Source: a virus
Lineage: Duplodnaviria; Heunggongvirae; Uroviricota; Caudoviricetes
Length of the DNA stretch: 64,000 bases
Virus record (IMG/VR): IMGVR_UViG_3300021399_000097
Reading direction: 5' to 3' (one strand)
How positions within the stretch are numbered: position 1 is the stretch's first letter; every line of letters starts with the position of its first letter. The translations under genes were made by a program, and so were the position numbers. Below are positions 1-43,016 of this stretch, in pieces. The notes under the pieces are model-generated. The model worked only from the letters and a program-made list of their open reading frames with translations. It made no database searches and was not told where the DNA came from.

Positions 1-3000
1 TTTTAATTTCATTATCAATTACTTCATCAATTTTATATAACTGATGCCCGCCACTTGATGCATATTTTTTCGCTACAAACATATCATCACATCTAATTCC
101 TTGAACAATAATCATACTTCCACGATTAAACCAAGATTTTTCAACAATATGTTTTTTCCCATCATCTCCCCTTGCTGATATTTGTTTATCAAACAAAGCG
201 AAATACTCTTTTCTAAACTTAACATCAACAACACCATTTGTTGTTAATAAACTAACTGTACTTTTATTTTTATTCTTTGCAATACAAGTCCCGCAAATCT
301 TATATAATTTATATAAGTTAATTGTTTTACCATTTTTTGTGAAACTTCTATCTATCTCTGGGTCTGTTGGTAAATCATAAAAATTAACAAACCCATATTG
401 ATTATTATTTATATTACTTAATTCATGCTCATGGTAATAAAAACATAATGCTTCCATTTCCCAAGCTGAAATTGTTCCTTTTGCATATTTATTCCAATCA
501 TTTAAGAATATCAATTTATTATATTCATGCAAAATATATTGTTGATTTTCTGTCATCCAAGTTCTAAATACATCCATCCATTTTTGATATATTTTATCCC
601 AGTCTGTTTTTAAAATACAATATATATTACCATTTTGACAAATCAATTGTTCTTGTTGAATATCTATTAAGAATGACATTGCGCGCTCATCTAAAACATA
701 ATATGGTTTTAATTTATTTGCACTAATTGTAATTGCTTTTAAATATCTATTAAACTCATATATGCGTCGCGCCATTATTCGCTCTTCCGTATCTTCTGGA
801 ACTAATTTATACTGCATTAAACCTGCCATATTTTGAAGATTCACTTTTTGTTTTTTATCACAAGTCTCCCAAATATACCAAGCCATGCATTCTTTTCTAT
901 CCATCATCTTATCAAAAGCTCCACCTTTAATAAGAGACATCATTACATTCTTCTTTGGTTTTACTTTATTTATAAAATCTCGTGGCGATACATATGGACG
1001 ATTTGAAATAATTTCTTCAATTACATCATCACCAACATTTAACATACCTTTCATGCCAAACAAGATTTGATTATTCTCTGGGTCAGGGACAAATCCAAAC
1101 TCGCTTCGGTTTATATCTGCCAAACTTACTTGAATACCTGCTGCCCTAATCTGCCCTATCGCTTTTGCTAACTTTGTATAATTTGTTCCATCTTGTTTAT
1201 CGTTATCTTCATCTTCTCCACTATCTAATGCACCACTATTTACAATTAAATATGCTGTATTCCAATAGACTGGATTAAAATGAGTTCCTAAATACAAAGT
1301 TTGCATACCAATGAATGAATATGCCAATGCATGAATAATACTAAACGAATAACCCATCTGCGGTCCTGCGCCATATTTCCAAATATATTCTCCAAGATTT
1401 TTTGAAGTTGCGCTCTCTAATACTTTCTGTTTCAATCCTGGAATCTTTGACATTTGTTTCTTACCAACAATCTTACGAGCTGCATTTGCTTCTGCTAATG
1501 AAAAACCGCAAATATGTTCATCCATTAACATTCTCATTAACTGTTCTTGGCTTGGTGGAACTCCATATGATGATTTAAAATATGGCTCAACTACTTTTTG
1601 TTCATCTTCTGTTAAACCACATCTTTCCATCTCTTTATACCATAATGAGATATTATTTTTATATCTTACATATTTATCCAATGGCATTTCTGCCCCTTGC
1701 TCGCTCGCCATCAAACGCATCAATCCATTTGCGTCTGCCATTTCCAATGGAGATTGTGGACGAATCTTTTTTGCTGCTTGCGCGCCAACAGAACCTTCAA
1801 ACTGAAATACTCCTAATACACTGCCGGCCGCAAGTGCATCCCACATTTTCTTATCATCTTTTGGAAGAACATTTGGATGCAGATATTTATCATAAACTTC
1901 TCTTAATGAAAGTTTTGGGTCAATTACTTCATCTGCCTGCAACAAATCAATTGTCTCAATAATAATATCTTGAACTGCCGTTAACAAAAAGTCATACTTT
2001 ACACTACCTGCAGCCTCTTGGTCATGCAAATCCCATTGAGTTGTTAAATTACCATTTCTGGCTCGCATAATCGCTGCTTCATCAAAAATATCTTCATCAA
2101 ATAAAATAACACCAGAAGCATGAATACCTCTACGAGACACTAGACCTTCAATACCCCTCATAATATCTAATAATCCAGGATATTGATTAACTGCATTAAT
2201 AAATTGTTTTTGCGGCATACGACCTTTATCAGGATTACCTTCAATCATATCATGTAAATCCCACAAAAATCCTCTTTCCTGTGGAACCAATGATGAAATA
2301 TACTGAGCATCATCAACATCAATTCCGTCTGGATAATCTTCACTTCTATATCCACGACATGCTGTCAATACTGCTGATTTTGTTGCTTCTGTTCCAAAAG
2401 TACATACTTGAACTATTCCAAGTTCTCCACGTTCTTTTCTAATTTCTTCAAATATCTTTGGAAGTTTACTCGGTGCCAAGTCAAGGTCAATATCACCTAA
2501 TTCAACACGTTCATCATTAAGATATCTCCAGAATGGTAATGACCATTCAATCGGGTCAAGTTGAGTTACACCCAAAAGATAATGATTTAAACCAGAACAT
2601 GCGGAGCCACGTCCCGCACCTACAGTACTGCCGCACCGCCAAAACAAATCAATATAATGCTGCAAAGTATTAGGATATGCAAACATACAAGTTTCAAGTT
2701 TTTCACCAATTACTTTTTTAACTCGTGCTTCTTCTTCTAATCTGTCAAGATATTCATCTTTTAATCCAATACCTTTATTTATCAATGCTTCACAACATTG
2801 ATTAACCCAATATCTTTCTTGAACATTATCACTTTCAAATAATTCATTTAAGACCGTACGATTACCAACATCAAAGTTTTTACCTTTTTGATAATTTTTT
2901 ACTGCTACTTCTGGAATATGCTGATGTTTCTCTAAACTATAAAAATCTATTTTCTTTTTTACTTCTAATGAGTTTTCAAATATCCAATCAATATCTCTAT

Positions 3001-3841
3001 CACTCATTGCAGCGCCCAGATGCTCTCTTACTTCATCTGGCGACTGCATATAAGCATATTCATAGAAATCATCAACTTCACGTTCTTCTTGTTTAGAATT
3101 AAGATATGATTTATGAACATACCTATCTTCTTTTTTTAAATAATGAGCATCAGTTCCTACAACCATCTTCAAACCAAAAGCATGGGCAACATTTAATAAT
3201 TGTTTATTTACTAATACTTGGTCTGCTTTTGTACTTGGCGCGCATTCTATATAGAAATCTTCTTTTCCAAATACATCAACACAAAAGTTTATAAACTCAC
3301 AAGCATTATTATAATATTCTAATTCTTTTTCTTTATCTTGTTCTTTTCTTGCTAATGCTAATCCATAAAGATTTGTTGATAATTCACCGCCCATACATGC
3401 GGTAGTTGCAATTATATGACCTTTATATTTCTTCATTATCTCTTTAAGTTCACTTTTTAAAGTTGGAACTCTTTCAAGACGCCTATCTGTATAAACATTA
3501 TACCAAGCTGTTGAAGATAATTCACATAACCCTTTATATCCCAATCTATCTTTTGCTAATAAAATAAAATGATAATATTTTTGTCCTCTATCTCTTGTCT
3601 CTGTTAAATATATCTCATTTCCTAATGCAATCGTGAAATCAGGATACTTTTCTTTAATTTCTTTCGCATATTTATTTACAATTATATGCGAACATAGAGC
3701 CTCGTGGTCTGTTATACTACATCCACTTAGCCCTACTTCTATTGCTCTGTTTATTAAGTCCTTAGGATGATTTATACAATCTATTAACCTAATATTACTA
3801 TATTCTGTATGTGCATGCACATCAAAAAATGTATCTATCAA
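1..3841 (-). CDS. dnaE: DNA polymerase III alpha subunit (DnaE-like, PHP + polymerase core), C-terminus beyond window
   Basis: Continuous minus-strand frame of more than 1,270 codons with no stop of any kind. N-terminal PHP motif FDVHAHTEYS, GSTVGAGRGSACSGL, and motifs typical of pol III alpha. Apparent TTG start 7 nt after AAAGGAG. Missing from the ORF track, presumably because it runs off the window edge and starts with TTG. Confidence 0.8.
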   Translation of the reverse strand, partial: MIDTFFDVHAHTEYSNIRLIDCINHPKDLINRAIEVGLSGCSITDHEALCSHIIVNKYAKEIKEKYPDFTIALGNEIYLTETRDRGQKYYHFILLAKDRLGYKGLCELSSTAWYNVYTDRRLERVPTLKSELKEIMKKYKGHIIATTACMGGELSTNLYGLALARKEQDKEKELEYYNNACEFINFCVDVFGKEDFYIECAPSTKADQVLVNKQLLNVAHAFGLKMVVGTDAHYLKKEDRYVHKSYLNSKQEEREVDDFYEYAYMQSPDEVREHLGAAMSDRDIDWIFENSLEVKKKIDFYSLEKHQHIPEVAVKNYQKGKNFDVGNRTVLNELFESDNVQERYWVNQCCEALINKGIGLKDEYLDRLEEEARVKKVIGEKLETCMFAYPNTLQHYIDLFWRCGSTVGAGRGSACSGLNHYLLGVTQLDPIEWSLPFWRYLNDERVELGDIDLDLAPSKLPKIFEEIRKERGELGIVQVCTFGTEATKSAVLTACRGYRSEDYPDGIDVDDAQYISSLVPQERGFLWDLHDMIEGNPDKGRMPQKQFINAVNQYPGLLDIMRGIEGLVSRRGIHASGVILFDEDIFDEAAIMRARNGNLTTQWDLHDQEAAGSVKYDFLLTAVQDIIIETIDLLQADEVIDPKLSLREVYDKYLHPNVLPKDDKKMWDALAAGSVLGVFQFEGSVGAQAAKKIRPQSPLEMADANGLMRLMASEQGAEMPLDKYVRYKNNISLWYKEMERCGLTEDEQKVVEPYFKSSYGVPPSQEQLMRMLMDEHICGFSLAEANAARKIVGKKQMSKIPGLKQKVLESATSKNLGEYIWKYGAGPQMGYSFSIIHALAYSFIGMQTLYLGTHFNPVYWNTAYLIVNSGALDSGEDEDNDKQDGTNYTKLAKAIGQIRAAGIQVSLADINRSEFGFVPDPENNQILFGMKGMLNVGDDVIEEIISNRPYVSPRDFINKVKPKKNVMMSLIKGGAFDKMMDRKECMAWYIWETCDKKQKVNLQNMAGLMQYKLVPEDTEERIMARRIYEFNRYLKAITISANKLKPYYVLDERAMSFLIDIQQEQLICQNGNIYCILKTDWDKIYQKWMDVFRTWMTENQQYILHEYNKLIFLNDWNKYAKGTISAWEMEALCFYYHEHELSNINNNQYGFVNFYDLPTDPEIDRSFTKNGKTINLYKLYKICGTCIAKNKNKSTVSLLTTNGVVDVKFRKEYFALFDKQISARGDDGKKHIVEKSWFNRGSMIIVQGIRCDDMFVAKKYASSGGHQLYKIDEVIDNEIK

Positions 3842-42264: not shown

Positions 42265-43016
42265 TAAATCAATTCTTCCAAATAAGCTCTATCTTCTTTA
42301 AGAAGAATAGGCATCGCATAATCAGTAATCCAAGTTCCTTCAACTCTTGTACATGCAGTTCCACGCTGCTTATGAATAGGGATTTTATCCCAAGATTTAC
42401 CTATATCTTCAAGCATTGTTTTAATCTCTTTACAAGATTTATTCATAAGCTCTTTGTGAGAAAATTCTGCTTGACCGCATGAGAGGATTGAATTGCGGAC
42501 CGCATCTAACTGTCTCCAATAGATAAGATTAACTACTTCTTCTTTTGGAATATTAAAACAACGGGCATCAAAAATAGCAGGTTTATTCAAGCATTTAGCA
42601 AGAGTTGATGAATAACTATTATTTGGATTGGCCCAAATAACTTTTTCTGCATTTTCTTTAAAATATTTATTAAAATAATATGTTGCTAAACTAGCAGAAA
42701 TACTACATAATTTATCTGTCCTATAATCAAACCATGCCGAAGTATTTAATTGATTATAATCTTTTAAAATTAAAGTAATTTCATCAGATTGAGTATACCC
42801 AAAAATACAATTCTGAACTTCTCCGCAAAGTGTTTCCATTGTTTGAATCATAGATGTTTGAAAAACATTATCAAATGGTCTGTTAAGTTCTTTAGTAAAT
42901 GAATGAAATGCGCGACCATCAATACGTATTGCTACTGGGGTACGTTTTTGAAGATAATACTGATTCCTAGATTCGTACTCTTTCATTCGTGTACCTAATG
43001 CATCATGTATTGGCAT
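42264..43016 (-). CDS. Thg1-like protein (tRNA 3'-5' nucleotidyltransferase family)
   Basis: VAIRIDGRAFHSFT and GYTQSDEITL. First gene after promoter P15. Confidence 0.65.
   Translation of the reverse strand: MPIHDALGTRMKEYESRNQYYLQKRTPVAIRIDGRAFHSFTKELNRPFDNVFQTSMIQTMETLCGEVQNCIFGYTQSDEITLILKDYNQLNTSAWFDYRTDKLCSISASLATYYFNKYFKENAEKVIWANPNNSYSSTLAKCLNKPAIFDARCFNIPKEEVVNLIYWRQLDAVRNSILSCGQAEFSHKELMNKSCKEIKTMLEDIGKSWDKIPIHKQRGTACTRVEGTWITDYAMPILLKEDRAYLEELI

Follow-up and report, generated by a model that had tools for sequence, protein, structure and literature searches.

A phage genome in two compatible dialects: genes with and without in-frame TAG codons in a 64-kb stretch from a gut phage

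The stretch analyzed here, 64,000 nucleotides of the IMG/VR virus record IMGVR_UViG_3300021399_000097 (the window, taken at its full length), raises the question of why a phage genome in which TAG appears to be a sense codon keeps that codon out of one set of its genes altogether and carries it in another. Gene-by-gene tallies showed that the genome is written in two compatible dialects, one free of TAG and one containing it. The explanation that we favor, with a probability of roughly 0.7, is a dual-coded phage with a code switch, in which a TAG-free early set would be translated first and the TAG genes would be translated after TAG decoding has built up.

TAG as a glutamine codon and its distribution among genes

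The window is AT-rich (about 32% GC). Exact protein matches identified it as the central part of ENA ERZ28612961 scaffold_63 (176,465 bp; window position + 64,969 = scaffold position), from an uncultured gut phage whose sister contigs range from 163 to 196 kb. Gene calling with TAA and TGA as the sole stops gave long, closely packed open reading frames (ORFs), whereas the standard code splits many conserved genes. The list obtained after refinement holds 83 genes with 20,309 codons and 139 in-frame TAGs, and the 81 complete ORFs end in TAA (55) or TGA (26). Minus-strand genes occupy 1-43016 and 47575-52077, and plus-strand genes occupy 17954-18985, 43246-47558, and 52218-64000.

The alignments and codon exchanges indicate that TAG is a sense codon for glutamine (genetic code 15, with TAA and TGA as stops). 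In the gene for a PIN-PhoH (PhoH2-type) RNA helicase/RNase, TAG makes up 70% of the Gln codons, including the conserved glutamines of the DEAQN and TQVD motifs. Aligned with 117 homologues of at most 71% identity, the 14 TAG columns of PhoH2 hold Q in 1041 of 1638 cells (64%) against a background of 3.4%, and five of these columns are invariant Q. Because many of the database homologues stem from recoded contigs that had already been translated with Q, independent evidence was sought. The PhoH structure 3B85 from Corynebacterium, a standard-code organism, has Q at the DEAQN and TQVD positions where PhoH2 has TAG. At the DNA level, 31 of the 56 codon differences between strains that involve TAG are exchanges with CAA (18) or CAG (13). 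Pyrrolysine decoding was considered and rejected: in the window no tRNA was found and no Pyl gene is among the Pfam matches, and TAG aligns with Gln.

When TAG was tallied against CAA and CAG for each gene of the window, the ratio was not uniform, as the first-pass annotation of this DNA had supposed (G-test per glutamine-like codon, G = 248, 81 degrees of freedom, p = 7e-19); in 5,000 random redistributions of the TAGs, G never exceeded 142. Forty-six genes (9,930 codons, 310 Gln codons) contain no TAG, and 37 of the 83 (45%) carry it. Among genes of at least 250 codons, 13 of 26 lack TAG, where 1.6 were expected and the simulation maximum was 6. Out of frame, TAG is about equally frequent in both classes (18.6-22.5 per 1000 in TAG-free genes versus 23.6-27.2 in the others), indicating that its avoidance is specific to frame and codon. 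Strand-specific mutation bias was ruled out, since TAG-rich and TAG-free genes adjoin on one strand.

The absence of TAG from core replication and RNA genes was borne out. The 13 named core genes (DnaE, helicase, putative primase, DnaB, Sak4-like, LigA, GyrA, GyrB, RNA ligase, and four phosphoesterases) together comprise 6,266 codons with 204 CAA/CAG and 0 TAG (P = 4e-19, given a TAG share of 0.19 over the whole window). The TAG-free features are as follows, together with the block that holds the RNA genes.

2-3841, minus strand: DnaE-type DNA polymerase III alpha (Pfam PHP, DNA_pol3_alpha, finger, HHH_6); TTG start after GGAG; 0 TAG in 1,280 codons, 51 Gln codons; 3' end cut by the window edge
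4076-5320, minus strand: Dda/RecD-like helicase (Pfam AAA_30, AAA_19, UvrD_C_2); GTG start; 0 TAG in 414 codons
7780-8877, minus strand: putative primase; no family match; 0 TAG
Within 7780-10639, minus strand: small ORF between the putative primase and DnaB; 0 TAG
9110-10639, minus strand: DnaB helicase (Pfam DnaB, DnaB_C); 0 TAG
11410-12405, minus strand: Sak4-like AAA_24 ATPase (Pfam AAA_24); 0 TAG, 11 CAG, 1 CAA
15880-17811, minus strand: LigA, NAD-dependent DNA ligase (Pfam DNA_ligase_aden, OB, BRCT); own promoter at 17868-17834; 0 TAG in 643 codons
19279-21627, minus strand: GyrA-like topoisomerase II subunit (Pfam DNA_topoisoIV, DNA_gyraseA_C)
21620-23530, minus strand: GyrB-like topoisomerase II subunit (Pfam DNA_gyraseB, Toprim); 0 TAG in 1,418 codons of the GyrA-like and GyrB-like genes together
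28075-43016, minus strand: block of ~34 genes in six promoter-headed operons, only 7 TAG in total (Pfam)

In this last block, the RNA-repair set (metallophosphoesterases, AAA_33 kinase, RNA ligase, RlaP, cREC_REC, YAcAr, and Thg1-like), an HNH endonuclease, and a Band_7 protein all have 0 TAG. The TAG-containing genes include the following.

5694-7463, minus strand: RecJ-like DHH nuclease (Pfam DHH, RecJ_OB); final gene of the operon; three internal TAGs, at codons 18, 110, and 331
10636-11316, minus strand: YorH-like gene (Pfam Phage_SPbeta_YorH); 2 internal TAGs
14083-15234, minus strand: GIY-YIG gene (Pfam GIY-YIG; NCBIfam group I intron endonuclease domain, residues 293-382); 12 TAG in 383 codons
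17954-18985, plus strand: gene with in-frame TAG
24774-25085, minus strand: putative holin with two transmembrane segments, predicted from position and hydrophobic segments only, no PHROG match; 1 TAG
25085-26476, minus strand: endolysin (Pfam ELLD, PG_binding_1, SH3_3); 5 TAG (share 0.19)
26523-27776, minus strand: PhoH2 (Pfam PIN_4, PhoH); 14 TAG in 417 codons
43246-47558, plus strand: module of 8 genes, function unknown in PHROGs; TAG in each, 23 in total; no host-type promoter
45984-46979, plus strand: Cys-Xaa-Xaa-Xaa-repeat protein (weak NCBIfam CXXX target match); 9 TAG
47575-48909, minus strand: radical SAM/SPASM peptide maturase of the CXXX-repeat-target family (NCBIfam TIGR04115, 447 bits, cutoff 350; phrog_1802); 15 TAG in 444 codons
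49610-52123, minus strand: operon behind promoter 52123-52089; three small genes without TAG, followed by dUTPase, RuvC-like gene, and a gene for 168 amino acids
Within that operon, minus strand: dUTPase (Pfam dUTPase); 2 TAG
50177-50659, minus strand: RuvC-like resolvase (phrog_159, phrog_827); TTG start; 6 TAG in 160 codons
Within that operon after RuvC-like, minus strand: gene for 168 amino acids; 3 TAG
52218-55250, plus strand: fibre-like virion gene; 3 TAG
55267-57171, plus strand: fibre-like virion gene (Laminin_G_3); 11 TAG
57187-63504, plus strand: fibre-like virion gene of 2,105 codons; 17 TAG
63505-63999, plus strand: fibre-like virion gene, partial; 2 TAG

The first-pass annotation had counted TAGs in several of these genes. 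Its figures for PhoH2 (14 in 417 codons) and RuvC (6 in 160) were reproduced, and those for the GIY-YIG gene (12, or 3.1%, not 17) and the radical-SAM gene (15 in 444, not 17 in 443) had to be revised; the 1 to 12 TAGs given for fibres and other genes were too few, the largest fibre having 17, and the radical-SAM gene, RuvC, and the fibres, which had been placed within 1-43016, lie at 47-64 kb. Its gene assignments were confirmed by Pfam, PHROGs, or NCBIfam, apart from the primase. Its division into two sharply different classes was overstated. The distribution consists of a strict zero class and a continuum and is not bimodal: in TAG-containing genes TAG accounts for 0.07 to 0.70 of glutamine-like codons (for example, 3/31 in the RecJ-like gene, 3/23 in the fibre at 52218-55250, 5/27 in endolysin, and 14/20 in PhoH2). 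By strand, all 13 plus-strand genes, which are of virion type or of unknown function, contain TAG, but just 24 of the 70 minus-strand genes do (p = 7e-6).

Promoters, operon layout, and relatives

The repeated promoters of the window make the early set easy to define, and the TAG-free class coincides with promoter-headed operons. Seventeen host sigma-A-type promoters with the consensus TTGAtt-N12-TaTGaTATAATATATAT lie between 3871 and 52123, all on the minus strand. Sixteen came from a scan with a position weight matrix derived from intergenic sites; their scores of 26.8-40.7 bits exceed the best score in 30 Markov nulls, 21.7 bits. The seventeenth came from a consensus scan. Coordinates are given from the -35 end to the downstream end.

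3905-3871, minus strand: matrix promoter
5682-5648, minus strand: matrix promoter
11378-11344, minus strand: matrix promoter
13802-13768, minus strand: matrix promoter
15640-15612, minus strand: promoter 17, consensus scan, 12/12 match
15883-15849, minus strand: matrix promoter
17868-17834, minus strand: matrix promoter
23593-23559, minus strand: matrix promoter
24710-24676, minus strand: matrix promoter
28581-28547, minus strand: matrix promoter
31503-31469, minus strand: matrix promoter
34899-34865, minus strand: matrix promoter
36822-36788, minus strand: matrix promoter
38256-38222, minus strand: matrix promoter
43084-43050, minus strand: matrix promoter
49560-49526, minus strand: matrix promoter
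52123-52089, minus strand: matrix promoter

From 3905 to 52123 on the minus strand, the promoters form a near-identical 35-nt sequence (TTGATTTTTTTATAAAATTATGATATAATATATAT) that often follows straight after a terminator.

Operons are separated by terminator-promoter pairs. Twelve promoters immediately precede a TAG-free gene, and none of the 13 plus-strand genes is preceded by a host-type promoter. The TAG-rich GIY-YIG gene has a terminator directly upstream (15277-15255) and no host-type promoter. Likewise, a terminator (26524-26498) stands directly upstream of endolysin, and no host-type promoter is dedicated to the lysis cassette; ahead of PhoH2 and the cassette come promoter 28581-28547 and a TAG-free gene. 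In their promoter-headed operons, the RecJ-like, RuvC, and radical-SAM genes stand at the 3' end or close to it, the radical-SAM gene being the last behind promoter 49560-49526 and a TAG-free gene.

The flank to the left of the window was examined over 13.4 kb of the same ENA scaffold (contig L102). Guanylate kinase, NrdD, and NrdG (3, 6, and 2 TAGs) follow DnaE there and are likewise promoter-distal. Together with a nucleoside deoxyribosyltransferase and a xanthine/uracil permease, they occupy 9105-15937 of this contig, downstream of DnaE on the same strand, with 1-6 TAGs each and no further host-type promoter.

Two relatives, L002 (~81% nucleotide identity) and L101 (~70% PhoH protein identity), were compared with the window. 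Equivalent promoter sites are kept in both, and the layout around PhoH2 and the lysis cassette is equal in L101. Both relatives also preserve the gene order, which runs from the RNA-repair genes through PhoH2, endolysin, holin, RNase H, and GyrB to GyrA, and the gyrase and RNA-repair genes have 0 TAG in each. The TAG counts differ: PhoH2 has 14 in the window, 5 in L002, and 6 in L101, and endolysin has 4 in L002 (partial gene) and 11 in L101. Radical-SAM orthologues at 85% nucleotide identity carry 8, against 14 in the window gene over the aligned part. TAG positions differ between orthologues and the gene-level partition is kept; the exchange of TAG with CAA or CAG in place indicates gain and loss of the codon in situ.

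Four genes of the TAG-poor minus-strand block carry a TAG that stands 0-3 codons before a TAA or TGA.

3883-4074, minus strand: gene with end TAG GAA AAA ATA TGA
24125-24589, minus strand: RNase H (Pfam RNase_H), one TAG, 3 codons before TAA; end TAG GAG GAA TAT TAA
36113-36442, minus strand: gene with end TAG TAA
37197-37817, minus strand: gene with end TAG GAG TAA

In this block, 4 of 19 TAGs fall within the last 5 codons (0.9 expected), compared with 0 of 120 elsewhere (Fisher p = 6e-4), and in the RNase H orthologue of L101 the TAG is penultimate (codon 166 of 167). The simplest reading is that TAG would still end these four early genes under the host code; after a code switch, read-through would add zero to three residues. 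The terminal TAGs could be relics of the ancestral code.

Explanations for the partition

At the sequence level, the window genome has the features of a code-15, dual-coded phage: the named replication, RNA-ligase, and phosphoesterase genes are TAG-free, the fibres, endolysin, and putative holin carry TAG, and this arrangement is kept in L002 and L101. The host is probably an anaerobic member of the Bacillota, to judge from the GGAG ribosome-binding sites, the sigma-A-type promoters, the NrdD/NrdG pair, and the PG_binding/SH3 endolysin. Indirect hints that it may use the standard code come from the sigma-A-type promoters, the GGAG sites, the TAG-terminal early genes, and the 45% of genes that are recoded.

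According to the code-switch explanation, host release factor 1 (RF1) would terminate at TAG early in infection, and full-length protein would come from the TAG-free set only. A TAG-decoding activity would then accumulate, in all likelihood that of a Gln-charged phage tRNA(CUA) encoded in the other 99 kb of the genome, and the TAG-containing genes would become translatable; the RecJ-like gene is a recombination gene that requires such suppression. The TAGs of the lysis cassette might be a real barrier to premature lysis, since the cassette has no recognizable host-type promoter to itself and stands behind an early-type one. TAG-free status would be set by the need for translation before the switch, and the TAG number in other genes would drift. 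In relatives, PhoH2 does not keep the high TAG share that it has here (p = 0.001 compared with the mean of the class); this share looks like drift rather than a conserved device. The first-pass annotation had proposed that the TAG-free set can be translated at once under the host standard code, and this set indeed contains exactly what a naive standard-code host could translate. Its further proposal, that TAG-rich mRNAs stay untranslatable until a suppressor appears, is supported in part, by TAG as Gln, the partition, and the promoter layout; the suppressor tRNA was not found in 77 kb.

Several observations weigh against the code switch. ARAGORN and Rfam revealed no tRNA and no Rfam family in the window, and ARAGORN detected no tRNA in the 13.4-kb left flank or the related loci, in a search that covered 77.4 kb of the 176-kb genome. 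Neither a release factor nor a Gln-tRNA synthetase is among the Pfam matches of the window. The promoter-distal position of TAG genes within operons is a trend only (46 concordant versus 25 discordant pairs, P = 0.09), and some promoter-proximal genes have TAG: the YorH-like gene (2 internal), 36618-36761 (2 internal), 15637-15831 (1), and 15297-15563 (1). Nucleotide-metabolism genes, usually regarded as early, carry TAG, and none of the 19 Gln codons of a 771-residue left-flank protein, similar to the fibre-type genes next to it, is TAG; its neighbors have 1-7. We infer early and late timing from promoter architecture, and a standard-code host is an assumption of the model.

A possible though on balance unlikely alternative is constraint alone: TAG would drift in wherever it is tolerated, early genes would be purified of it, and the other genes would be timed by transcription. 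The graded TAG share is what this explanation would lead one to expect, as is the fast turnover in PhoH2 and the radical-SAM gene. CAG is depleted in TAG-containing genes (46/292 versus 80/310 in TAG-free genes, p = 0.003), as expected if C-to-T change turns CAG into TAG, and this matches a simple mutational flow. The endolysin share of 0.19 and the single TAG of the putative holin also fit. Moreover, the TAG class had been described as toxic or time-critical, a description that fails in both directions: guanylate kinase, NrdD, NrdG, dUTPase, and the permease, harmless metabolic genes, carry TAG, and the HNH endonuclease has none and RNase H only a terminal one. What speaks for an adaptive block is that the lysis cassette and PhoH2, here and in L101, stand behind an early-type promoter with no host-type one of their own, so that translation could be limiting. 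Early-type promoters also head the operons in which the radical-SAM gene and RuvC stand together with TAG-free genes. The code switch is common to both explanations, which differ solely on whether the block is adaptive. This genome is a good test case for whether stop-codon recoding times lysis or reflects constraint on early genes.

We consider improbable a joint reading in which TAG is dual, acting as a terminator with a tandem back-up stop in a few early genes and as Gln elsewhere, with the code change as the sole lysis timer and the suppressor reached in an unusual way. Host-type early promoters would then drive the lysis cassette and several nucleases, and the suppressor might arise, for example, through tRNA repair or editing rather than from a conventional phage tRNA gene. 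Room for such a route is left by the failure to find a suppressor tRNA in 77 kb and by the large TAG-free RNA-repair set (Thg1-like, RNA ligase, kinase/phosphatase, and RlaP).

Very little speaks for mosaic acquisition, the alternative that the first-pass annotation had raised. On this view, phages with heavier recoding would have donated the TAG-rich genes, and standard-code phages those without TAG. In its favor, mosaicism is a general property of phage genomes, the Sak4-like and YorF-like genes deviate in using mostly CAG for Gln and are higher in GC, and the TAG-free 771-residue protein of the left flank sits amid TAG-containing fibre-type genes. Against this, synonymous codon usage (Gln left out) correlates between TAG-free and TAG-rich genes at r = 0.98, compared with 0.982 between random halves of the TAG-free set, and neither GC nor GC at third codon positions differs significantly. 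Gene order is kept in relatives at ~81% nucleotide and ~70% protein identity, TAG is swapped in place with CAA or CAG within orthologues, and TAG-rich and TAG-free genes alternate inside single operons.

It is hardly credible that the host itself reads TAG as Gln or suppresses it efficiently, the TAG-free genes being so for another reason such as translation efficiency: the failure to find a suppressor tRNA in 77 kb would fit, and such a tRNA is also absent from some published recoded phages (PMC10607447), but only 37 of 83 genes have TAG, compared with ~90% of genes in phages matched to a recoded host (10.1101/2021.08.26.457843). Translation efficiency does not explain why 13 genes of related function use TAG for none of their 204 glutamines, and the most abundant products, the virion proteins, do carry TAG. 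TAG followed by a back-up stop seems to terminate four genes of the TAG-poor block.

Further features and comparison with known systems

Other motif searches were less informative. A generic sigma-70 scan of the window found 120 sites against 117 expected, which is uninformative in AT-rich DNA; no 9-mer common to the regions upstream of TAG-rich units stood out as a late-promoter motif, and AAATTGGACRAATTA has two good-quality copies only and is overall not above chance. The motif AATTGGAC(A/G)AATTA occurs at 17867-17881 and 52133-52147 on the plus strand, 71-73 nt upstream of the genes at 17954-18985 and 52218-55250. Both adjoin the -35 element of a divergently oriented early promoter; with no more than two good copies, the motif may be due to chance.

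In the replication region, a YorF-like gene (12426-13370, minus strand; Pfam YorF) lies beside the Sak4-like gene. Across the two (11410-13370), Gln is almost always CAG (11 CAG versus 1-2 CAA) and GC reaches a local peak of 36%; elsewhere in the genome CAA is preferred over CAG. The RecJ-like gene is called in fragments in Logan contigs L011 and L012, apparently with the standard code. The GIY-YIG protein has an N-terminal transmembrane segment, a Gln/Glu-rich coiled coil of ~280 residues, and its nuclease domain at the C-terminus; in classical homing endonucleases the GIY-YIG domain lies at the N-terminus. In L101 (6486-9447), gyrB is split by an inserted GIY-YIG gene with 2 TAG, both gyrB parts being TAG-free; the insert looks like an intron-borne homing endonuclease. 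The 300 nt upstream of PhoH2 (27777-28074, minus strand) hold no called gene; they contain an ORF without ATG that has a hydrophobic N-terminus, one TAG, and an acidic tail and reaches the PhoH2 start.

The block at 28075-43016 includes three or four metallophosphoesterases, an RNA ligase with a PHA02142 OB domain, a YAcAr/SLOG protein, and a Thg1-like 3'-5' nucleotidyltransferase, and all of its RNA/tRNA-repair-type genes stand behind host-type promoters. The RNA-repair set may serve the protection or maturation of tRNAs, possibly with the suppressor among them. Of 60 IMG/VR relatives of the Thg1-like gene that were scanned, one (L068) has a tRNA(CTA) nearby, and it is too distant to inform the window genome. 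This 90-nt tRNA with anticodon CTA (L068 312-401) lies where L065 and L067 carry a 94-nt tRNA-Ser(TGA), and it may be a type-II (Ser-like) TAG suppressor of another lineage.

The genes at 45984-46979 (plus strand) and 47575-48909 (minus strand) converge and are both TAG-rich, the first encoding dozens of Cys-Xaa-Xaa-Xaa repeats (CTGSCTGTC...) and the second a maturase; the pair may yield a thioether-cross-linked virion or secreted protein. Two fibre genes have a TTG start in the common context GGGAG..GCTGAAGATTGGC (52205-52225 and 57174-57195, plus strand), and a TTG start is apparent in the CXXX-repeat gene, DnaE, and RuvC as well. A second fibre-like gene cluster occupies 16074-22250 of L102 (~7-13 kb before window position 1), in which a 709-residue protein shares its C-terminal domain with the 2,105-residue fibre of the window.

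Searches for relatives returned only distant ones. Megablast of 24 kb of the window against the cultured-phage collection INPHARED gave no match; the best PhoH match there has 40% identity (Alicyclobacillus and Bacillus phages), and tblastn of the phage collection with PhoH2 gave none above 60%. In IMG/VR no close relative was found: an exact 37-mer from the end of the window does not occur there, and the relatives of the Thg1-like gene are at most 56% identical. A homology search with a partial protein of 280 residues from the flank gave no matches. As a practical matter, standard-code gene calling interrupts 37 of the 83 genes of the window.

Ivanova and colleagues are said to have described in 2014 stop-codon-recoded gut phages that infect standard-code hosts. 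Borges et al. 2021/2022 (bioRxiv 10.1101/2021.08.26.457843) proposed that early genes use the standard code, that a suppressor tRNA is made next, in some cases with an aminoacyl-tRNA synthetase or a release factor, and that recoded structural and lysis genes come last. The code-switch model is essentially their hypothesis, and the promoters and the comparison with relatives add new, partial support for it. As in the window, in-frame recoded stops occur in the structural and lysis genes of their gut phages, the replication machinery of several clades is in the standard code, GC is low, and an early-standard/late-alternative switch was proposed to gate lysis; 26-71% of their genes are recoded, compared with 45% here. 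A strongly recoded GIY-YIG/intron-type endonuclease amid early genes also has a counterpart in their Agate clade. However, the window genome could not be placed in any of the named clades (crAss-like, Lak, Jade, Sapphire, Agate, Garnet, Amethyst, and Topaz). It differs in its SPbeta-like replication module (YorF and YorH, with DnaE, DnaB, and the RecJ-like gene adjoining), in a lysis cassette that lies inside the minus-strand early block behind PhoH2, and in that no suppressor tRNA was located in the 77 kb searched.

The human-gut phages of phAss-1, the proposed Phassvirus (PMC10607447), have 133-136-kb genomes, recoded TAG, and predicted Clostridia hosts; TAG interrupts ~28% of their ORFs, mostly virion genes and some DNA-processing enzymes. 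They share with the window genome TAG as Gln, an encoded DNA polymerase III alpha (DnaE), the lack of a dedicated aminoacyl-tRNA synthetase, and a likely Bacillota host. They differ in having three tRNA-Sup-CTA genes, compared with none found in 77 kb here, and the genome here measures 176 kb. In crAss-like phages, code 15 was shown experimentally (Peters et al. 2022, PMC9523058), with TAG translated as Gln in a standard-code host. The reading of TAG is alike here, where it comes from the sequence. The crAss-like phages concerned are ~100-kb podoviruses that infect Bacteroidota, whereas the promoters and Shine-Dalgarno sites here look Bacillota-like.

The Bacillus prophage SPbeta, with its yor genes, resembles the window at the family level only, in the YorF-like (12426-13370) and YorH-like (10636-11316) genes and the adjoining DnaE, DnaB, RecJ-like, and Sak4-like genes. 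SPbeta is not known to depart from the standard code. Dual-coded gut phages have already been described, and the window adds a member from a lineage without a cultured-phage or close IMG/VR match. With genomes of 163-196 kb, an SPbeta-like replisome, and probably an anaerobic Bacillota host, this lineage offers a well-resolved dual-coded example.

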